This document shows positions 1-10,179 of a DNA stretch of 12,615 nt, one piece after another. The stretch lies in IMG/VR virus record IMGVR_UViG_2541047681_000005; one strand, given 5' to 3'. Position 1 is the stretch's first letter; every line of letters starts with the position of its first letter. A program made the translations under genes and the position numbers. The DNA comes from a virus. Lineage: Duplodnaviria > Heunggongvirae > Uroviricota > Caudoviricetes. Under the pieces are notes generated by a model. The model was not told where the DNA came from. It saw only the letters and a program-made list of their open reading frames with translations, and searched no databases.

Positions 1-1230
1 ATGCGCAGAGCACTTAACAAACTGAGTGATACACAGCTAAGGAAAATCAACGGCACACCCGCCCAAAAAACAGCCTTTCTTAATGACGGTGGAAACCTGA
101 GCGTCAGGCATTCAACCAGCGGCCTTTTAACCTGGTATTTCACCTACAGGGCCGGAACGGGAAGGGGAGCACGACCGGAACGGATTAAGCTGGGAAATTA
201 TCCTGATCTGAGTCTGAAAGCTGCCAGGGAAAAAGCGGCACAGTGTCGCGCTTGGCTTGCTGAGGGGAAAAATCCACGTCATGAGATGAATTACACCGTA
301 CAGAAAGCGTTAAAGCCCGTAACGGTTGGCGATGCGCTTACCTACTGGCTTGAGTCTTACGTAAAGGAAAACCGCGTGGATTATGCCGCCCTGAAAAAGC
401 GCCTTAATAATCACGTAATACAGCACATTGGTGCTATGCCGCTGGATAAATGCGAGCTACGGCACTGGCTGGCCTGTTTTGACCAGGTGGCAAAGCGAAC
501 GCCTGTTACTGCCGGATTCTTGCTACAGACGTGCAAACAGGCGCTTAAGTTCTGCCGGAGGCGGCGCTATGCAATCAGCAACGTTCTTGATGATATGAGT
601 GTGGCGGACGTTGGGAAAAAACCGGATATAAGCGAGCGTGTCTTAAGCACCAAAGAACTTGGCGAATTATTGCAGGCACTGGACAAAAAAATATTTTCCC
701 CTTACTACGTCGCACTAATCCGCCTCCTGATTGTTTTCGGATGCCGGACGGTAGAACTGAGGTTATCGGAGATCAGCGAGTGGGATTTTACCGAAATGCT
801 CTGGACCGTGCCGAAAGAACACAGCAAAACGAAGGTGGCAATATTCCGGTCCATACCGGAAGCAATACTGCCGTTCGTCACGCAGCTGGTGGAGCAGAAC
901 AGGCACACGGGCTTATTGCTGGGGGAAGTGAAACAGGAAACAAGCGTGTCGCAGTACGGCAGATTAGCGCACAGGAGGCTAAAACACCCTCACTGGTCAC
1001 TGCATGACATCCGGCGCACCTTTACAACGATGCTGAACGATTTAGGCGTGGATCCTCACGTCGTGGAGCAGCTTACAGGTCATCAGATGCCAGGGATGCA
1101 ACGAGTCTATAACCATTCCCGTTATCTGGATGCGAAACGTGACGCGCTGGATATGTGGACGGAGCGGTTAGGGATACTGGCGGGAACACATGAAAACGTA
1201 ACCACATTGCCAATAGCCAGAGAAATATAA
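1..1230 (+). CDS. int: Tyrosine site-specific integrase, P4-type
   Basis: 409-aa ORF starting at window base 1. N-terminal arm-binding-like region (LNDGGNLSV...WYFTYR...LGNYPDLSLKAARE) and C-terminal catalytic region with HDIRRT (H-x-x-R) and a terminal VYNHSRY tyrosine motif. Upstream RBS not visible because the window starts at the ATG. Confidence 0.9.
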   Translation: MRRALNKLSDTQLRKINGTPAQKTAFLNDGGNLSVRHSTSGLLTWYFTYRAGTGRGARPERIKLGNYPDLSLKAAREKAAQCRAWLAEGKNPRHEMNYTVQKALKPVTVGDALTYWLESYVKENRVDYAALKKRLNNHVIQHIGAMPLDKCELRHWLACFDQVAKRTPVTAGFLLQTCKQALKFCRRRRYAISNVLDDMSVADVGKKPDISERVLSTKELGELLQALDKKIFSPYYVALIRLLIVFGCRTVELRLSEISEWDFTEMLWTVPKEHSKTKVAIFRSIPEAILPFVTQLVEQNRHTGLLLGEVKQETSVSQYGRLAHRRLKHPHWSLHDIRRTFTTMLNDLGVDPHVVEQLTGHQMPGMQRVYNHSRYLDAKRDALDMWTERLGILAGTHENVTTLPIAREI

Positions 1231-1836: not shown

Positions 1837-2196
1837 ATGAATACTGGATATTCTCCCGAACAAGGGCGGGGCTTCGTTCGTCCTGAAAAACAGAATCTGC
1901 AAAATTTTGCCGAAATTATTCCGGTTATTTCCGGCCTTACTGGCGGGAGTGAAACCAATATTGTTAACGCCAGAGCGTTGCAGATGTTTGATGATAAAAA
2001 GGGAGTAAATTTAACTTACACCCCTGACGGCAATCAGAATATGAGCATTATCTCTGAGTCAGGTTTCTACAAACTAATAAAAACAAAAAGCGCCCCGTTG
2101 CCGGAGCGCCTTTGTGAACAATTAACCTACTGCGCAAAAAATGAATCTGAGCAGTGGGATTATATCAACCATGTGGAGAAGCGCCACAATTGCCGA
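1837..2196 (+). pseudogene. Possible decayed Bro-N/antirepressor-like remnant (N-terminal part of a 428-aa composite ORF)
   Basis: The first ~115 aa (DGNQNMSIISESGFYKLIKTKSAPLPERL) weakly resemble the Bro-N/KilA-N motif (ESGLYSLI...). The remainder of ORF 1837..3123 is Cys/Arg/Ser-rich and low in complexity, crosses a divergent promoter region and overlaps a better-supported minus-strand gene, so the long ORF is not one real protein. Confidence 0.25.
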
Positions 2197-2543
2197 ATAA
2201 CGGGCAAAACAAAGGCCACCCGCTACGGTGGCCCCTCGACACAAGCTACACGTTATCCCCAACGCATGAGCATTGCCAACAATGCCACATTTGCGGCTGG
2301 TGGGCAATGCAATCAGTCTGGTTCAGTTCGTTGCCATACCTGCAATGAGCGCTTTTCCCTGTACTCTTTAAGGAATTGCTCAAGGGCAAAAGCACATGGC
2401 GCGAATCTTTCTGATTCATGCTCTATCTTTCTGCGCCGTCTTTTCCGTGCCGGTGATAATGTTTTGGTCAATTCTTTATCGGTCATTGTGTTGTCCTGCA
2501 TAGCAATGCGCCGTAGTTACTCACACCACGGCGCTGGTGATGG

Positions 2544-2723
2544 TTACTCCTGCTCTTTGGCCTTGCGGCGCTGGCGGCGTTTGATTTCGCCGCGCATGGC
2601 TGCGTTTATAAACTGTCCCGTGCTTTCGCCTTCTTCTTTCACGTTCTCCATGCCTTCAATAATTTCATGGGCAATACGTGCAGTTACAGATTGTGATTTT
2701 GCATTCTTTGGACCCGTTGCCAT
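2544..2723 (-). CDS. Hypothetical small basic protein (59 aa), divergently transcribed from the left operon
   Basis: Internal ATG at 2721..2723 (complement) preceded by RBS GAGGGG with 6-nt spacing; product MATGPKNAKSQ...EIKRRQRRKAKEQE. Candidate -35/-10 (TTCAAA/TATATT) on the minus strand, overlapped by operator-like repeats. Family not recognised. Confidence 0.45.
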   Translation of the reverse strand: MATGPKNAKSQSVTARIAHEIIEGMENVKEEGESTGQFINAAMRGEIKRRQRRKAKEQE

Positions 2724-2744
2724 GTTTAACCCCTCATGTTTTTG

Positions 2745-2826
2745 GTGTAAGACAATATACACGAAAAAAAAATATTTTGAAGGGTTGACGTGTAAGACAC
2801 CATTGTTTTACATTGTGTCTTACACC
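2745..2826. promoter_or_regulatory. Divergent promoter region with three copies of an 11-bp operator-like motif GTGTAAGACAC
   Basis: Motif at 2745..2755 and 2790..2800 (direct) and 2815..2825 (inverted). Candidate + strand promoter -35 TTGACG (2785..2790) and -10 TTACAT (2808..2813), 17-bp spacer; one operator copy sits in the spacer and the inverted copy at the predicted +1. Candidate minus-strand promoter overlaps the first copy. Confidence 0.55.
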
Positions 2827-2922
2827 TTATTGATGAAAGGCACAGAAACGACGAAACCCCGCACTGTAGGAGCAGTAACGGGGCTTCTAACCACCAACGA
2901 TAGCAACAGTATCGAGGTAGCT

Positions 2923-3123
2923 ATGAGAAATCATACCACACACCCGAAAGGGCGGGACTCGCACAACCTGAATAAATACATCTGGCGTTTTATCGCCCTG
3001 AGCACGGCACAACCGCGCGTGATTACCATTGAGGCCACCAGCGAACAGGAAGCACGCCAGCAATCTCCGGCTGGCTGCGTGATGGTATTTGCTGCCCGTA
3101 TTCGTCAGGGGGTAGGCTTATGA
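2923..3123 (+). CDS. Small protein (66 aa), first gene of the left operon; possibly Icd-like, otherwise hypothetical
   Basis: ATG at 2923 with RBS GAGGT upstream; product MRNHTTHPKGRDSHNLNKYIWRFIALSTAQPRVITIEATSEQEARQQ.... Its stop overlaps the next ATG (ATGA). The Icd-like assignment is a recollection of P4-like prophage annotations and is unverified. Confidence 0.45.
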   Translation: MRNHTTHPKGRDSHNLNKYIWRFIALSTAQPRVITIEATSEQEARQQSPAGCVMVFAARIRQGVGL

Positions 3124-3795: not shown

Positions 3796-4095
3796 ATGAA
3801 ACTTAAATATTCTGGCTTAACTGCCAGTGGCAAAACTCGCACTAAATTCATGCGCGGTGATATTTACCGCGACCAGTACGGCGGCACGGTAATGATTAAG
3901 GGCGTGGAGGAACGGCGCGTAACCTACCGTCGTGAAGGCTACGAATATGATTGCGTGATGCCTGTTTATCAGTTCGATCGTGATTTTTCTCTGGTGCAGG
4001 CCGTACCGCGTAACGTGCCCACCAGCAGGGAGAAAGCACGCGCCAATATTCAGGAAATAAAAAAGATGCTTAACGTATTCAGGGGTAAGAAATGA
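3796..4095 (+). CDS. Hypothetical protein (99 aa)
   Basis: ATG at 3796 with RBS GGAGA 9 nt upstream; stop overlaps the primase start (ATGA). No family recognised. Confidence 0.55.
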   Translation: MKLKYSGLTASGKTRTKFMRGDIYRDQYGGTVMIKGVEERRVTYRREGYEYDCVMPVYQFDRDFSLVQAVPRNVPTSREKARANIQEIKKMLNVFRGKK

Positions 4096-5846
4096 AACTG
4101 GCACCGAACGTAAAAAAACAACCACGCGGAATAAAACACAAAGACACAGAGGTAATTATTTTCGCGGGTAGTGATGCGTGGTCACATGCAAAACAGTGGC
4201 AGGAGCAGGACGGCCCCGCATCCGGCGATAATGTGCCGCCTGTGTGGCTTGGGCCAAATCAGCTTGCCGAACTTGATGCGCTGAAAATTGTTCCGGATGG
4301 GAAAAAGCGCGTAAGGCTGTACCAGGCCGGAGAACTGGATTTAGTGGAGACCAAAAAGATTGGTCAGAAGCTGGCGGCGGCAGATATTCAGGACGCAAAT
4401 TTTTACCCTGATGGTATGCACGGTCAGAAGGTGGAGAACTGGCGCGAATATCTGGCCCGTGAGCGCCAGAATCTTTCTGATGGTCTGGTCATTGAGCTTC
4501 CGGTAAAGCAAAAGGCGCAACTTTCGCAGATGGCGGACAGTGAGCGCGCGCAGCTGCTTGCCGATCGCTTTGATGGCGTTTGCGTACATCCTGAAAGTGA
4601 AATCGTTCACGTATGGCGCGGCGGGGTATGGTGTCCGGTCAGCACAATGGAACTTAGCCGCGAAATGGTGGCGATCTATTCAGAGCACAGGGCCACTTTC
4701 AGCAAGCGCGTAATCAATAACGCCGTGGAAGCGTTAAAAGTTATTGCCGAACCAATGGGCGAGCCGTCCGGCGATTTGCTGCCGTTCGCCAATGGTGCGC
4801 TTGACCTGAAAACGGGGGAATTTTCCCCGCACACGCCGGAGAACTGGATCACCACGCACAACGGCATTGAGTACACGCCACCAGCACCAGGGGAGAACAT
4901 CCGCGATAACGCGCCAAACTTTCATAAATGGCTTAAGCACGCAGCCGGAAAAGACCCGCGCAAGATGATGCGTATATGTGCCGCGCTGTACATGATTATG
5001 GCGAACCGGTACGACTGGCAGATGTTTATTGAGGCCACCGGAGACGGCGGGAGCGGTAAAAGTACATTCACGCACATAGCCAGCCTTCTGGCAGGGAAAC
5101 AGAACACGGTAAGCGCTGAAATGACATCGCTTGATGATGCTGGTGGACGTGCGCAGGTTGTCGGGAGTCGTCTTATCGTCCTGGCTGACCAGCCGAAATA
5201 TACAGGCGAAGGAACGGGCATCAAGAAAATCACGGGCGGTGACCCCGTGGAAATTAACCCGAAATACGAAAAGCGTTTCACGGCTGTAATCAGGGCGGTG
5301 GTGCTGGCGACCAACAATAACCCGATGATATTCACCGAACGGGCCGGAGGTGTGGCACGTCGTCGCGTGATTTTCCGTTTCGACAATATCGTCAGTGAGG
5401 CCGAAAAAGACAGGGAGCTACCGGAAAAGATCGCGGCTGAAATCCCTGTCATTATCCGCCGATTGCTGGCGAACTTTACCGACCCTGAGAAGGCACGGGC
5501 TTTACTACTGGAACAGCGTGACGGTGATGAAGCACTGGCAATAAAGCAACAGACGGATCCGGTTATTGAGTTTTGCCAGTTCCTGAATTTTCTGGAGGAA
5601 GCGCGCGGCCTGATGATGGGGGGCGGTGGCGATTCAGTGAAGTACACGACCAGGAACAGCCTTTACCGCGTCTATCTGGCGTTTATGGCATACGCAGGCA
5701 GGAGCAAACCGCTAAACGTAAATGACTTTGGAAAGGCTATGAAGCCTGCCGCAAAAGTTTACGGACATGAATATATTACGCGGAAAGTTAAGGGGGTAAC
5801 GCAGACTAACGCAATAACAACAGACGAGTGCGACGCGTTTTTATAA
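4092..5846 (+). CDS. Replication primase/helicase, P4-alpha / D5-like family with P-loop NTPase domain
   Basis: 584-aa ORF with RBS AGGGG upstream; Walker A motif GDGGSGKST, followed by a hydrophobic strand (LIVLADQP) consistent with Walker B. Position after int-alpA and immediately before an iteron cluster matches satellite pri-rep genes. Confidence 0.9.
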   Translation: MKLAPNVKKQPRGIKHKDTEVIIFAGSDAWSHAKQWQEQDGPASGDNVPPVWLGPNQLAELDALKIVPDGKKRVRLYQAGELDLVETKKIGQKLAAADIQDANFYPDGMHGQKVENWREYLARERQNLSDGLVIELPVKQKAQLSQMADSERAQLLADRFDGVCVHPESEIVHVWRGGVWCPVSTMELSREMVAIYSEHRATFSKRVINNAVEALKVIAEPMGEPSGDLLPFANGALDLKTGEFSPHTPENWITTHNGIEYTPPAPGENIRDNAPNFHKWLKHAAGKDPRKMMRICAALYMIMANRYDWQMFIEATGDGGSGKSTFTHIASLLAGKQNTVSAEMTSLDDAGGRAQVVGSRLIVLADQPKYTGEGTGIKKITGGDPVEINPKYEKRFTAVIRAVVLATNNNPMIFTERAGGVARRRVIFRFDNIVSEAEKDRELPEKIAAEIPVIIRRLLANFTDPEKARALLLEQRDGDEALAIKQQTDPVIEFCQFLNFLEEARGLMMGGGGDSVKYTTRNSLYRVYLAFMAYAGRSKPLNVNDFGKAMKPAAKVYGHEYITRKVKGVTQTNAITTDECDAFL

Positions 5847-5860
5847 TTTTTTGTAATTGC

Positions 5861-6086
5861 TGTCTACCCTGTCTACCTGAGTAAAGAAAAATACATTTAA
5901 TTCAGTGCATTAAGTTAGGTAGACAGCCTTTTTTTACTGTCTACCCACTATCTACCCTCTCTACCTGATTTTACCTGAATCAGACAGGGAGGTAGACACG
6001 GGGTAGATAGTGGATAAAAGCACTCTACCCCGCTGAAAGCCGCGCCATTACTGGCATGAGGGCCACTAAGGTAGATAAGGTAGACA
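5861..6086. repeat. Iteron cluster, putative replication origin
   Basis: About 11 copies of the core TCTACC / GGTAGA in both orientations (TGTCTACC at 5861, 5870, 5938; ATCTACCC 5950; CTCTACC 5959 and 6023; GGTAGACA 5918, 5991, 6079; GGTAGATA 6002, 6070), with an AT-rich stretch at 5880..5915. Directly downstream of the primase stop. Confidence 0.7.
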
Positions 6087-6134
6087 AGGGGAGGCACAAC
6101 TCAAAACTTTTTAAACGAGGGGGTAAAAATAAAT

Positions 6135-6413
6135 ATGCACACTTCAGGGAAATTTAATAAATCACTCAAAAAACGCAGAGACAGAACAGAACCGAAATAT
6201 CGCGCGTTAGACATGACAGAGCACGCTTTAAAGGTGGCAATCAGAACGATAGACCGCCACGCGGGGGAAGGATACGCGAAAGCACATCCCGAACTGATAA
6301 GCGCATTCATGACCACGACGGCGGCAAATTTTGCCACGCTGACAGAGCGGGAGATTGCCGAAGCGGAACAGGTAACAACCATCAACGTTAAAACCGGAGA
6401 GGTGGAATCATGA
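6135..6413 (+). CDS. Hypothetical protein (92 aa)
   Basis: ATG at 6135 with strong RBS GAGGGGG; stop overlaps the next start (ATGA). No family recognised. Confidence 0.55.
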   Translation: MHTSGKFNKSLKKRRDRTEPKYRALDMTEHALKVAIRTIDRHAGEGYAKAHPELISAFMTTTAANFATLTEREIAEAEQVTTINVKTGEVES

Positions 6414-6832
6414 CAGCACAGATAGCAGCTTACGGGCGGCTGGTGGACGACCCGCAGGTAAAACAGACCAGCAAGGGCACACCGATGACGCTGGCGCGTA
6501 TGGCGGTCCCCCTTCCGTGCAGCCAGGCAGATGACGGAACGGCGACGATGTGGTTATCCGTCCTGGCATTTGGCAGACAGGCCGAAGCACTGGAAAGGCA
6601 CCGCAAGGGTGAACTCCTGAGCGTGGCGGGTAACATGCAGATCAGCCAGTGGACTGGGCAGAACGGAGAAACGCGGCAGGGCTGGCAGGTTATCGCAGAC
6701 AGTGTAATCAGTGCGCGAACGGCGCGACTGGGCGGCAAAAAAGGTCAACAGGGCCAGGCTACTGACGCGCTGAACAGGGCAAAACAACAGGCGGGGAATG
6801 ATGATCCGTACGGGGATAACATACCGTTTTAA
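6410..6832 (+). CDS. SSB-like single-stranded DNA-binding protein (OB fold with SSB-type C-terminal tail)
   Basis: 140-aa ORF with RBS GGAGAGGTGG. N-terminal region aligns by eye with the E. coli SSB OB fold (GRLVDDPQV vs GNLGQDPEV; WLSVLAFGRQAEALERHRKGELLSV vs [25 protein letters not shown]). Gly/Gln-rich linker and C-terminal DDPYGDNIPF resemble the SSB DDDIPF tail. Confidence 0.65.
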   Translation: MTAQIAAYGRLVDDPQVKQTSKGTPMTLARMAVPLPCSQADDGTATMWLSVLAFGRQAEALERHRKGELLSVAGNMQISQWTGQNGETRQGWQVIADSVISARTARLGGKKGQQGQATDALNRAKQQAGNDDPYGDNIPF

Positions 6833-6848
6833 GCGACGAGAGACAGAA

Positions 6849-6870
6849 GCCGGAGCAATCCGGCTTTTTT
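6849..6870 (+). terminator. Rho-independent terminator after the SSB-like gene
   Basis: Hairpin GCCGGA-GCAA-TCCGGC followed by six T (6865..6870). Confidence 0.7.
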
Positions 6871-6908
6871 ACGGGTCCTCCTGGCGGGGTGGGCCTGAAC
6901 ACGGGGCG
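6871..6908 (+). other. Degenerate cos-like sequence (pseudo-cos)
   Basis: ACGGGTCCTCCTGGCGGGGTGGGCCTGAACACGGGGCGGGAAGCGCGG resembles the cosQ/cosN segment at 9313..9360 (ACGGGTCCTTTCCGG...ACGGGGCGGCGACCTCGCGG), and is preceded by the same terminator hairpin, but lacks the intact GGGCGGCGACCT core. Confidence 0.45.
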
Positions 6909-7044
6909 GGAAGCGCGGAAAAAAGCGCATTTTTGTGATTTTATCGTCATCATCATCATGAGCGTAATTTATTGTTTTTAATTGTTTTGATGCAAAAAAG
7001 ATGATGGTTGTGGTTAATTTTCGTTCGACATCTTTGCAGGCAGA

Positions 7045-7087
7045 TAAAAAAGCCCGATAAGGTCAGAGGTGGCTTATCGGGCTTTTG
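7045..7087. terminator. Bidirectional hairpin terminator candidate
   Basis: 11-bp perfect stem AGCCCGATAAG / CTTATCGGGCT with 11-nt loop, A-run upstream and T-run downstream. Confidence 0.5.
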
Positions 7088-7163
7088 CATATGAGGCTTT
7101 TTGGTGCACTGACACACATGAGCGGGATCATCATTTCATAATTTGCAACACAACTCAATATCA

Positions 7164-7212
7164 TTGTACAAAACGCAATCCTGATTATAATCAGAGCTGG
7201 ATGAACATCCAG
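7164..7212 (+). promoter_or_regulatory. Candidate promoter of the capsid operon with overlapping palindromic operators
   Basis: -35 TTGTAC (7164..7169), 16-bp spacer, -10 TATAAT (7186..7191). The -10 lies inside a perfect 14-bp palindrome CTGATTATAATCAG (7181..7194), followed by inverted repeat CTGGATG-AA-CATCCAG (7197..7212). Confidence 0.5.
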
Positions 7213-7247
7213 TTATGATTTTTTAAGTCGAAGAGGAATTTCTTACT

Positions 7248-7454
7248 ATGGCTGAAGAGAAAAAAGGCGGTGTTTCGGTGTACATAAGCCCCGAAATCGT
7301 GGAGGTGCTCAAGCAGCGCCACAAAAAAAACTATGAGGCTGGCGTGGCGGCTGGACTGGATCCGCTGATGACGCCGGAGCCGTCGATAGGTTCACTTGTA
7401 CGCTCTTATTTACTTGCGGCGCTTGGGATGCATAAAAATTATGGGGGTGAATAA
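7248..7454 (+). CDS. Hypothetical protein (68 aa), translationally coupled to the major capsid gene
   Basis: ATG at 7248 with RBS AGAGGA; its stop TAA overlaps the capsid ATG (TAATG). No family recognised. Confidence 0.55.
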   Translation: MAEEKKGGVSVYISPEIVEVLKQRHKKNYEAGVAAGLDPLMTPEPSIGSLVRSYLLAALGMHKNYGGE

Positions 7455-8509
7455 TGGCAGGCAAAGCAACGGCACTTAACACTAACCAGCTTTTCATGTA
7501 CCTGAATCGCGGGGATATTGCGGATTTTAAATTCAGCCCTCTGTTTACTACGCTGTTTTTCCCGAACGTGGCGACATTCAGCACGCAAAACATCATGCTG
7601 GATACCCTGGACATTGAAGAAGTCACCATGTCGGCGTTTTGTTCGCCTATGGTGGGTAGCCAGGTTCAGCGCGATAAAGGGTACGAAACCAGCACGATTA
7701 AACCTGGCTACATGAAGCCAAAGCACGAAATCGATCCAACGAAAACCATCATGCGCATGGCTGGAGAAGATCCGGCACAGCTTAACGACCCTACCTATCG
7801 CCGTATGCGCCTGATTACTGGCAATATGCGCCGCCAGATAAACGCCATAAAAGCGCGCGTGGAATGGCTGGCGGTAAATGCGGTAACGACCGGAAAAAAC
7901 ATCATTGAGGGCGAAGGCATAGAGCGCTATGAAATCGACTGGAAGATACCGGAAAAAAACATCATAGAGCAGGCCGACGGGAAAAAATGGTCAGAGCAGG
8001 ACAAAGAAACCCACGATCCAATCTATGATATCGAACTATACGCCGATCAGGCTGGTTGCCCCGCAAACGTCATGATTATGGGCGCTGAGGTATGGCGAAC
8101 GTTACGCAGCTTTAAAAAATTCCGTGAGCTGTACGATCTTTCCCGTGGTTCAGAATCCGCCGCCGAACTGGCCTGTAAAAACCTGGGCGAAGTGGTGAGC
8201 TTTAAAGGCTATCTTGGTGATCTGGCCCTTATCGTCTATTCCGGCAAATACACTGACAGCGATGGTACCGAAAAATATTTCCTTGAGCCTGATTTGCTGG
8301 TCCTGGGCAACACCAACAATAAAGGGCTGGTGGCCTATGGTGCGATAATGGATCAGGAAGCGGTAAGAACGGGCGCAACACAAAACATGTTTTACCCGAA
8401 AAACTGGATTGAGGACGGCGATCCGGCGATTGAGTACGTGCAGACACACAGTGCACCGCAGCCGGTACCGGCAGATATTCGCAAATTTGTTACCGTCAAA
8501 ATTGGTTAA
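7454..8509 (+). CDS. Major capsid protein, lambda gpE family
   Basis: 351-aa product aligns by eye along its length with lambda gpE (341 aa): [163 protein letters not shown] upstream. Confidence 0.9.
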   Translation: [351 protein letters not shown]

Positions 8510-8521
8510 CGGGGGGATTCT

Positions 8522-8857
8522 ATGGACACTCCATACATTGAGTTATTTGCAGGCAGTCAGCAGGTCGCCACGACGCTGGTACATTTTGCCGCTGATGCTG
8601 GCGTTATTCAGGAATTTACCCCGCTGATGCTGGCAGACAATGGCGAGTTTAAGCCGTGGGATGGTCAGGAATCTGGCAAGGCTGTTTATCTGACCTCGTA
8701 CCCTGTGGACACGTCAAAGCAGAAATCAGCACAGTGTTACAAGACGGGGATTTTCAATATTGCCGCCGTTAACTGGCCTGAGAGCGTCGACACCGATGCG
8801 AAAAAATGCGCCGCCTTTGCGGGTTCTGGCGTATCCGTTCAGCCGCTGGCCCGATAA
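8522..8857 (+). CDS. Head decoration protein, lambda gpD family
   Basis: 111-aa product (lambda gpD is 110 aa) with TPLMLADNGEFKPWDG vs TPLMLDTSSRKLVAWDG and YKTGIFNIAAVNWPESVDTDAKKCAAFAGSGVSVQ vs [44 protein letters not shown] upstream. Order is capsid then decoration, the reverse of lambda (D then E). Confidence 0.85.
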   Translation: MDTPYIELFAGSQQVATTLVHFAADAGVIQEFTPLMLADNGEFKPWDGQESGKAVYLTSYPVDTSKQKSAQCYKTGIFNIAAVNWPESVDTDAKKCAAFAGSGVSVQPLAR

Positions 8858-8869
8858 GCAGGGGGAACG

Positions 8870-9283
8870 ATGGCAACGAATGAAAGCGTCATGACGCTAC
8901 CGCTGGCGAGTAAATTTAAAGCCGAAGCGCGGGCAATGGCTGACAGAGGTTTATCAACCTACGAGGCCGTATATCAACTCAACAAACTGGAAGAGCAGGA
9001 CAAGCCGCGCGCTGATGCGATTATGGCGCTTCATGAACATAACGACTATCAGCCGCTGTTACGTGCAATGGCAAACGTGCCATGTATTAGCGTCGATAAT
9101 GCTCGTGAAATCCTGAACATGACCATAGAGCAGGAGCGCCCAAAGGTTGCGCCGGAGCTTACCGCAGCCTTTGAAAACTTTATGGACATGCACAGCCCGA
9201 AAGCCGTATCACCCGGCATGGCATACGACGGCAGAAACCAGGGCGATGAAGGCGACGTCGATCGCATACTGAAAACCATCTGA
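8870..9283 (+). CDS. Hypothetical protein (137 aa), last gene before cos
   Basis: ATG at 8870 with RBS AGGGGGA; followed by a strong terminator. No clear similarity to lambda FI or other remembered head proteins. Confidence 0.6.
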   Translation: MATNESVMTLPLASKFKAEARAMADRGLSTYEAVYQLNKLEEQDKPRADAIMALHEHNDYQPLLRAMANVPCISVDNAREILNMTIEQERPKVAPELTAAFENFMDMHSPKAVSPGMAYDGRNQGDEGDVDRILKTI

Positions 9284-9289
9284 CATAAG

Positions 9290-9312
9290 GCCGGAGAAAT
9301 CCGGCTTTTTTT
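9290..9312 (+). terminator. Rho-independent terminator after the capsid operon
   Basis: Hairpin GCCGGA-GAAA-TCCGGC followed by seven T (9306..9312); near-identical to the hairpin at 6849..6870. Confidence 0.75.
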
Positions 9313-9445
9313 ACGGGTCCTTTCCGGCATATGGACCCGTTACGGGGCGGCGACCTCGCGGGTTTTCGCTATTTATGACGTTTTTCCGTGAAGGTGACAC
9401 CACCACCACTTGATTAATATTTAACCATGCGGTTAAGGTAACATT
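9313..9445 (+). other. Lambda-type cos site (cosQ-like, cosN, short cosB) upstream of the TerS-like gene
   Basis: TACGGGTCCTTTCCGG...GTTACG|GGGCGGCGACCTCGCGGGTTTTCGCTATTTATGA closely matches the lambda cohesive-end region as remembered. Predicted 12-nt cohesive end GGGCGGCGACCT at 9345..9356. One R-site-like element (CGTTTTTCCGTG, about 9381..9392) and an AT-rich stretch follow. Confidence 0.75.
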
Positions 9446-9886
9446 ATGATTGATAAAGCTTGTTTTGTAAGTCAGCAGGAAATAGCTGAACATTTCAAGG
9501 TTAACAGAACCACTATTCGCGCATGGACCAAACAGGGGATGCCGTATCTTAATGCGGATCGCGGAAAGTCTGGCGGTTATCACATCGGGCATACATTGCT
9601 TTGGTCTTCAGGTAAAAGCCGTCTTGAGGCCATCAGATATCACGTAGAAACCAGTGCGCTGGAAAAAATTATGTTTGCCAGGCTGCTTTCATCTGAGCGT
9701 GACGAGTACTCCAGTGAAGAAACAGAACATCGATTTGATGAAGGTTTGCAGATTTACGGCTATTCACCGGAAGATGTGAGCAAGGCACGAAATAAAATGG
9801 CTGGCTTTCTGGCTGGGTGGCGTCATGCCGTAAGCGTTCGCCGTGCCAGCATGGAACAATCAGTCGTTACAGAACAGCAAAGTTAA
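9446..9886 (+). CDS. Small terminase-like protein, lambda Nu1-type DNA-binding N-terminus with divergent C-terminus (TerS/Rpp-like)
   Basis: 146-aa ORF about 90 bp downstream of cosN, as Nu1 is in lambda. N-terminus QQEIAEHFKVNRTTIRAWTKQGMPYL aligns with Nu1 KKQLADIFGASIRTIQNWQEQGMPVL (winged HTH). Shorter than Nu1 (181 aa) and the C-terminal region does not resemble Nu1's. Confidence 0.7.
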   Translation: MIDKACFVSQQEIAEHFKVNRTTIRAWTKQGMPYLNADRGKSGGYHIGHTLLWSSGKSRLEAIRYHVETSALEKIMFARLLSSERDEYSSEETEHRFDEGLQIYGYSPEDVSKARNKMAGFLAGWRHAVSVRRASMEQSVVTEQQS

Positions 9887-10012: not shown

Positions 10013-10090
10013 TCTTTATTTTTACTTAGTTATCAAATGGATATGACAAACAATTAAACAACAACCTCCCTCTAAAAAAGCTCATAAATA

Positions 10091-10145
10091 GCGAAAAACC
10101 GCGAGGTCGCCGCCCCGTAACGGGCCATAATTCCAGGAAGGACCC
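10091..10145 (-). other. Second cos-like sequence in inverted orientation (cosQ/cosN-like, no recognisable cosB)
   Basis: Reverse complement of 10091..10145 reads CGGGTCCTTCCTGGAATTATGGCCCGTTACGGGGCGGCGACCTCGCGGTTTTTCGCTATTTATGA, about 85% identical to cos at 9313..9380 including an intact GGGCGGCGACCT. No R-site-like element or TerS gene follows it on the minus strand. Confidence 0.6.
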
Positions 10146-10179
10146 GACGACACCAGACTATCAGAACGATGGGGGCACA

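Follow-up and report, generated by a model that had tools for sequence, protein, structure and literature searches.

The closest described relative of the locus reported here is EcCICFT073, a Gram-negative phage-inducible chromosomal island (PICI) for which helper-dependent induction, packaging and high-frequency transfer were shown experimentally and two cos sites were described (Fillol-Salom et al., 2018, ISME J; PMC6092414). This island carries a capsid-decoration gene pair, c1499/c1500, and the supplement of the study lists protein lengths of 351 aa for c1499, 111 aa for c1500 and 137 aa for c1501 (PMC6092414). Of 29 reference Gram-negative PICIs, 21 carry capsid genes, which are dispensable for transfer (PMC10111431), and later functional work on c1499/c1500 was not found in the literature searched. 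The capsid-decoration feature is already known and its role is an acknowledged gap. In this study, we analyzed the corresponding genes in a viral DNA stretch of 12,615 nucleotides (IMG/VR record IMGVR_UViG_2541047681_000005; hereafter the window). We are highly confident that the window is a PICI of the EcCICFT073 type and that positions 7248-9283 are its capsid-shell operon.

The window shares gene order, flanking rpp, cos sites and the phoQ junction with EcCICFT073, and many EcCICFT073-type islands are 95-97% DNA-identical to the window region. However, the window is an allelic variant, with its best complete-genome match (99.8%) in an O18:H1 strain that has the island in tqsA, and it lacks the PerC-family gene located between SSB and the 68-aa gene. 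Capsid-forming PICIs (cf-PICIs) such as EcCIEDL933 encode capsid, protease, portal, connectors, HNH, TerS and TerL and form small capsids (Alqurainy et al., bioRxiv 10.1101/2022.09.08.507074). They have the PICI backbone (int, alpA, rep) and an own capsid protein in common with the window, whereas the island studied here has shell proteins only, plus Rpp (redirecting phage packaging). SaPIbov5 Ccm and the PmCI172 capsid homolog, which are linked to small capsids, are likewise satellite-encoded HK97-fold capsid homologs. In contrast to these, the EcCICFT073 ortholog had no observed effect on size, and the window encodes decoration and scaffold homologs alongside its capsid homolog. The head genes of lambda, phage 21, Gifsy-1, N15, Chi and Salvo resemble the window genes in their families (Phage_cap_E, HDPD and the Nu3 C-terminal domain), in lying on one strand and in their tight packing. 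However, the order in the window is E-D-Nu3-like and not (C/Nu3)-D-E, the scaffold is encoded by a separate gene that is not nested in a protease gene, and the operon has its own predicted promoter in place of Q-dependent late transcription. Identity to the phage proteins is 25-47%, and no portal, maturation protease, head-tail connector or large terminase gene was detected among the window open reading frames (ORFs; Pfam, PHROG) or in related loci.

Four genes on the + strand form one unit, encoding a 68-aa protein, a gpE-like, a gpD-like and a Nu3-like protein, with intergenic gaps of -1, 12 and 12 nt and a G-rich ribosome-binding site, read from the sequence, before each gene. The gpE-like major capsid protein (351 aa, 7454..8509, ortholog of CFT073 c1499) matches Pfam Phage_cap_E (PF03864) at 5.9e-52, with 177 bits versus a cut-off of 22.9 and residues 28-349 covered, and aligns with lambda gpE over 327 residues at 44% identity. 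It is near-identical to the solved chain 3BQW_A, a CFT073 protein (E = 8e-236, residues 2-350), and also related to the lambda gpE structure 7VI9 (1.2e-82). As 3BQW serves as HK97-type representative of PF03864 (bioRxiv 10.1101/2021.03.18.436031), the HK97-type fold of the capsid protein is given by this solved structure. The gpD-like head decoration protein (111 aa, 8522..8857, + strand, ortholog of c1500) matches Pfam HDPD (PF02924) at 1.3e-17, with 64.5 bits versus a cut-off of 29.1, and phrog_49 at 2.6e-27; it is 36% identical to lambda gpD and 44% identical to D of the CFT073 helper prophage. The original prediction, a reading of the window made without database searches, had proposed an E-like gene followed by a D-like gene; both ORFs lie exactly where it had placed them and their families were established by Pfam. 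A separate observation concerns the capsid N-terminus (window 7454-7530), which is divergent in lineages with an own Nu3-like gene and lambda-like in lineages without one (compared with L003, L004 and L009). The lambda-like form reads DLYSPAQL, versus SMYTTAQL in lambda. Co-variation with scaffold binding is possible and, with two lineages of each kind, is a lead.

The third protein of the set is encoded just downstream of the pair, beyond the region 7454-8857 considered in the original prediction. This stand-alone gene (137 aa, 8870..9283, + strand, ortholog of c1501) matches phrog_1999 at 1.4e-61, a family that is also hit by the C-terminal 125 residues of Gifsy-1 gpC (3.4e-42) and by residues 117-200 of lambda Nu3 (2.7e-26). 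In BLASTP, residues 49-119 of the 137-aa protein align with the C-terminus of Gifsy-1 gpC (411-480, 2e-8), and residues 49-131 align with a homolog from phage 204576 (1e-11) and with gpC residues 416-493 of the CFT073 helper (7e-10), whose scaffold domain is 36% identical; a direct BLASTP comparison with lambda Nu3 was not significant. Homology to the domain common to protease C and the Nu3 scaffold is thus present. In lambda-type phages this domain is nested in frame in the 3' part of the protease gene, whereas here the gene is free-standing, the window has no protease gene, and of Nu3 the protein has retained just the C-terminal domain, preceded by a different N-terminus. An AF2 monomer model was all-helical and of low confidence (pLDDT 46), too low for a fold search. 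The name 'phage head-tail connector protein' given by NCBI was not reproduced with NCBIfam or Pfam, and the Nu3 link is much better supported. From its sequence, we regard the 137-aa protein as a scaffold-like Nu3-type homolog, the scaffold role itself being predicted.

The order of the capsid and decoration genes sets PICIs apart from phages. In lambda, D (5747-6079) precedes E (6135-7160), and this order is reversed in the window. A capsid profile searched against viral contigs recovered 80 loci; all 80 were PICIs with E then D, in the order SSB, (68 aa), E, D, third gene, rpp or terS, 93 aa. E then D was also found in annotated E. coli islands of three further lineages. In a one-genome-per-species scan, a single-protein query found nothing and the loci were recovered with a profile-based search: all 36 phage or prophage loci had the order A-B-C-D-E-FI-FII, and the four PICI loci (Kluyvera, Cedecea, Superficieibacter and Kosakonia) all had replicase-E-D. 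By annotation, six phages (lambda, the distant phages Gifsy-1, Vibrio HY01, Xylella Salvo and Chi, and one Escherichia phage with a partial genome) also have D then E, in the arrangement portal, protease/scaffold, D, E. The phage-style position of gpD directly upstream of the capsid gene was hence not observed in the window; here the decoration gene follows directly downstream, as in every PICI locus examined. The suggestion in the original prediction that this order is specific to satellites was borne out by all PICI loci versus D-E in all phage and prophage loci examined. Because E-then-D is common to all PICI lineages, a single old rearrangement is implied, and the order is a shared derived trait inherited with the PICI module. 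Nothing points to a function of the order in itself.

Identity matrices point to an old origin of the pair. The capsid protein E shows 55-64% identity within PICIs versus 41-47% to enteric lambdoid phages, and the decoration protein D 49-56% versus 25-39%. For the window capsid protein, the top phage match is 47.6% identical and E of the CFT073 natural helper prophage 45%; a capsid identical to that of a resident prophage, which would have indicated simple gene capture, was therefore not found. PICI E and D each form a separate clade, diverge in parallel and always travel together. Accordingly, the capsid-decoration pair is best described as an old separate clade and not as a recent capture. 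Pairwise dN/dS over dozens of alleles was 0.13 for E, 0.12-0.21 for D, 0.22 for the 68-aa gene and 0.27 for the 137-aa gene, compared with 0.17 for the proven functional Rpp and 0.19 for SSB. The operon ORFs are intact in approximately 95% of loci. Of 5426 complete E. coli genomes, 788 carry the module, which is conserved across at least five genera. The dN/dS values of 0.12-0.27 equal those of proven functional island genes, and the genes are kept for a function at the protein level.

The operon is delimited on both sides. Upstream, a terminator-like hairpin flanked by an A-run and a T-run (7041..7093; inverted repeat with 21-nt arms, 86% complementary) is kept in close relatives and is predicted to insulate the capsid operon from the upstream SSB unit. 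Downstream, an intrinsic terminator read from the sequence (GCCGGA-GAAA-TCCGGC followed by T7; 9289..9312, + strand) closes the four-gene operon. A sigma-70-type promoter, TTGTAC-16 nt-TATAAT, is predicted at 7164..7191 on the + strand. Its -35 element is weak, with three of six consensus bases, so that it was not listed by a generic promoter scan, which found 5 promoter-like sites in the region versus 5.4 expected from shuffles and thus no excess. However, 50 related loci, among which 37 distinct upstream sequences occur, retain TTGCAx-16-TA(T/A)AAT, even in a lineage with coding DNA only about 65% identical, and because of this conservation the promoter was taken as real. The claim that the -10 element is embedded in a palindrome was also confirmed: TATAAT (7186-7191) lies within the perfect 12-bp palindrome TGATTATAATCA (7182..7193), which in the window is unique to the capsid promoter and is nearly invariant in the main lineage, whereas the diverged lineage has TGATTAAAATCA. 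The -35 element is covered by an inverted repeat (7163..7179, + strand; window copy ATTGTACAAAACGCAAT), a candidate operator with the family consensus ATTGCA-N5-TGCAAT. This repeat occurs once in the window and is perfect in the majority of relatives, among them the lineage whose 68-aa allele is 56% identical. Further upstream, the block ATTTCATAATTTGCAAC (7133..7149, + strand) is nearly invariant among the same 37 distinct sequences and is a candidate regulator site. A second inverted repeat with 15-nt arms is located at 7189-7220. The palindromes are statistically unremarkable, because 12 bp around the near-palindromic TATAAT need only four extra matched positions. A leader hairpin followed by a T-run (7195..7214, + strand) lies between promoter and ribosome-binding site and is terminator-like (leader fold z = -2.5); as an attenuator it is left doubtful, since it is missing in the diverged lineage and shows uncompensated stem changes in some loci. 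A function of the upstream palindromes as replication origin was ruled out, as the iterons sit at 5850-6090. AlpA-type motifs common to the alpA and capsid promoters were likewise rejected: GACACAAY occurs only near alpA, and CTGACACA occurs once at each promoter, barely above chance.

The first gene of the operon encodes a 68-aa orphan protein (7248..7454, + strand, ortholog of CFT073 C_RS07005). As proposed originally, it is coupled to the capsid gene by a TAATG overlap, in which its stop codon TAA (7452-7454) and the capsid ATG share one base. No sequence match was obtained in Pfam (even at E = 10), NCBIfam, PADLOC or PDB, no phage match was found, and only 16 representatives occur among 1.84 billion proteins. 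The N-terminal K-GGV(S/T)VYISP is invariant and followed by two helices, and there is a weak lead to the DNA-binding ribbon-helix-helix fold. The protein falls into three allele classes (100%, about 68% and about 56% identity), and in comparisons of the window with its relatives (L010-L053) these are found in changing combinations with capsid genes of 92-99% identity. This mixing implies frequent recombination at or near the TAATG junction, and such free recombination speaks against a tight structural partnership with the capsid protein. In the Arc-ant (P22 Pant) and CopG-RepB systems, a small ribbon-helix-helix autoregulator is encoded by the first, coupled gene. The window operon resembles them in its small first gene overlapping the next start, in the symmetric sites across -35 and -10 and in the weak ribbon-helix-helix lead, but the 68-aa protein has no sequence similarity to those regulators, and the comparison is an analogy only. 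A role as small autoregulator is our preferred reading of the 68-aa protein, for which we see about an even chance. A PerC relationship was rejected: Pfam PF06069 was not matched, and P0023, the sole relative labelled PerC, joins a PerC N-terminus to the C-terminus of the 68-aa protein; this chimera is apparently a deletion product. A PerC-family gene, sometimes accompanied by two small ORFs, lies between SSB and the 68-aa gene in relatives including CFT073 (L006, L007, L008, L176) and is missing from window 6833-7247.

The surroundings of the operon agree with the satellite identity that had been suspected from the start, given the PICI gene set, Rpp and the cos sites. The integrase gene (window 1-1230, Arm-DNA-bind and Phage_integrase domains), the AlpA activator (3e-18), the D5_N primase (4092-5846, Pfam) and the adjacent origin share one direction, which is the PICI layout. 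Directly 3' of the primase gene, dense direct and inverted CTGTCTACC/GGTAGACAG iterons at 5850-6090 form the replication origin of the island, and an SSB gene (Pfam) lies upstream of the capsid operon. Outside the operon, an Rpp homolog (9446..9886, + strand; PDB 6HLK RppC, 5.7e-31) is flanked by cos1 (9314..9385, + strand), with cosN GGGCGGCGACCT at 9345-9356, and cos2 (10075..10146, - strand). Both cosN copies are lambda-like, and Rpp together with helper-type cos sites corresponds to the terminase hijack of cos phages by EcCICFT073-type PICIs. The two cos arms, 86% complementary to each other, enclose rpp as a 72-nt inverted repeat. In several otherwise collinear islands (L007, L035, L036, L039 and L040) the cos1-rpp segment is flipped (98% identity on the reverse strand in L007), an inversion polymorphism for which no description was found in the literature searched. 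The window island adjoins phoQ, and in CFT073 the same gene set occupies this chromosomal position. The window yielded no match in Rfam and tRNA scans or in PADLOC. A 428-aa ORF at window 1837-3123 overlaps Icd-like pseudogene fragments and an opposite-strand YlcI/YnfO gene annotated in the closest annotated relative (L001), and as a whole it is probably not a real gene.

Several observations were made on the settings of related loci. Many related islands run straight into lambda-like E or B fragments at 97-100% identity (L029, L030, L036, L055-L089), and this helper-embedded arrangement also occurs in Cedecea and Kosakonia (L178 and L219). Islands in helper prophage late genes represent the arrangement called helper-embedded PICI (HE-PICI; PMC10111431). 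In PapRG-04-4 (L003, 11997-17371), a diverged member of the island family adjoins P2-like baseplate, tail fibre and tail sheath genes and may be embedded in a myovirus-type prophage with a capsid protein of a different family. Contigs 100% identical to lambda head genes were found in assemblies of unrelated organisms, namely Neobacillus, Kitasatospora, Paenibacillus, Pseudomonas, Shewanella, Leeuwenhoekiella and others (L185-L198 and more); some are about 48.4 kb long and often of low coverage, and they are almost certainly assembly contamination with lambda DNA.

How could the operon work? We propose that the capsid, decoration and scaffold-like proteins would be a matched set whose members co-assemble with each other. 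The resulting shells would be built with portal, protease, terminase and tail of the helper, would be helper-sized, and might add to or replace helper-made shells for the Rpp-directed packaging of PICI concatemers. As the helper makes shells too, the set would be dispensable in the laboratory. The 68-aa protein, by analogy with Arc, would most likely be a small dimeric ribbon-helix-helix DNA-binding regulator acting at the symmetric sites of its own promoter and not a capsid component; this idea rests on its invariant N-terminus with two helices and on symmetric sites unique to its promoter. Co-assembly is favoured because E and D diverge in parallel, a cognate scaffold is present and selection is strong, and the PICI capsid protein is expected to form a lattice because a cognate decoration protein and scaffold make sense only then. 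The joint variation of the capsid N-terminus and the Nu3-like gene is a lead in the same direction. A capsid-shell operon with matched-set co-assembly is the best explanation as a whole, although we would place it somewhat below an even chance, and the working mode, matched-set co-assembly with the 68-aa protein as regulator, is tentative.

A number of points weigh against this proposal, and the published lack of any phenotype is the main counter-argument. Transfer by the natural helper and interference with lambda were both unaffected by deletion of c1499 or c1500, and high transfer by lambda and phi80 persisted when c1499 was replaced by cat (PMC6092414). It was considered that the no-phenotype strains carried a broken scaffold gene (c1501::tetA), but this was refuted, as the primer arms run up to the stop codon of c1501 and continue from the terminator. 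With the tetA cassette placed after the c1501 stop, the operon was therefore intact in the published strains and there is no marker artefact. No experiment on PICI shell proteins in particles was found in the literature searched. Without an own portal and protease, the island would depend for assembly on its proteins recognising helper parts, with only about 45% identity to the helper proteins. Furthermore, a sister PICI lineage (L004, L005, L009 and four loci from other genera) has E-D without the 68-aa gene or the scaffold gene and carries an excisionase-like HTH gene in third position; the capsid-decoration-scaffold triad is therefore not universal. Concerning the regulator, the 68-aa protein matches no ribbon-helix-helix family by sequence, and the window copy of the -35 inverted repeat is changed in each arm.

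Other explanations have to be weighed on the same data. Capsid remodelling was the purpose suggested in the original prediction: the PICI capsid protein and the short Nu3-like scaffold, possibly with the 68-aa protein, would redirect assembly to small capsids fitting the approximately 11-kb island, comparable to SaPIbov5 Ccm and SaPI1 CpmB. The 137-aa protein with only the C-terminal Nu3 domain recalls CpmB, which is reported to compete with the helper scaffold via a shared C-terminus (Dearborn et al. 2017). Against size redirection, the L004-type lineage lacks the scaffold gene. Small capsids are produced with PmCI172, a PICI that has a capsid homolog (PMC6092414; PMC6893505), whereas all DNA packaged by EcCICFT073 with lambda was phage-sized and no PICI-monomer band was seen with the natural helper (PMC6092414), in strains whose operon was intact because the marker follows the c1501 stop. 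With the deletions of the orthologs c1499/c1500 without effect (PMC6092414) and single genes other than c1503 not interfering when expressed (PMC6739421), remodelling as purpose was not supported, and we regard size redirection as improbable. The same applies to the 68-aa ORF as size-determining or scaffold-interacting factor, since it is absent from the sister lineage that keeps E-D, its alleles reshuffle against near-identical capsids, and its weak fold lead is to ribbon-helix-helix. The original interpretation thus stands in part: a satellite-specific order and a non-captured capsid were supported, but remodelling and a 68-aa size factor were not. Alternatively, the PICI shell proteins might enter the heads of particular lambdoid phages or scaffold them wrongly and in this way act against phages. 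Capsid assembly is a common point of PICI interference with helpers (PMC6739421), the proteins are strongly conserved, and the predicted sigma-70-type promoter could make expression independent of helper late transcription. However, when the genes after the origin were expressed singly, only c1503 (rppA) interfered with lambda, with similar results for phi80 (PMC6739421), deletion of c1499 or c1500 left interference intact (PMC6092414), no PADLOC match was obtained, and a poison would need no decoration protein of its own. We consider such dominant-negative interference distinctly unlikely.

It is also conceivable that the E-D copy is a by-product of a helper-embedded lifestyle, either a captured spare for an interrupted helper E or B gene or a recombination substrate, an idea that was discussed previously (PMC10111431). 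The many loci that run into lambda-like E or B fragments 97-100% identical, and the two alike in other genera, would fit this. On the other hand, the window island and EcCICFT073 adjoin phoQ outside any prophage, PICI E and D form an old separate clade, and the reversed order common to all lineages implies one ancient origin, so that we give this possibility little credence. The published deletions without phenotype would also be expected of a functionless remnant of a phage ancestor. Nevertheless, dN/dS values of 0.12-0.27 equal those of proven functional island genes, the ORFs are intact in about 95% of loci, the module was kept across at least five genera, and promoter and terminator are conserved; given the dN/dS values a remnant is the least likely rival and very improbable.

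In summary, this study adds the scaffold homology of c1501, E-then-D as universal PICI signature, selection data and operon boundaries to what was known of these islands. Capsid genes are present in 21 of 29 reference Gram-negative PICIs (PMC10111431) and this lineage in roughly every seventh complete E. coli genome. We found the capsid gene accompanied by a cognate decoration protein and, in this lineage, by a cognate scaffold too, all of them under purifying selection of the same strength as for proven island functions, and the question whether satellite-encoded shells exist, and when they matter, is now testable. The answer bears on the evolution of satellites from capsid thieves to capsid makers and is also relevant to islands as engineered delivery particles. 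It is tempting to speculate that a self-matched shell kit builds satellite-specified shells on stolen helper portals when suitable natural helpers are present, although we hold this to be rather unlikely. The helpers tested were lambda, phi80 and one resident prophage, and if the speculation is true, a change in size or stability could have gone unseen. The island would then be a functional intermediate between whole-capsid thieves and cf-PICIs that steal only tails, and in the best case the shell genes would mark an intermediate stage from capsid-stealing to capsid-forming satellites.

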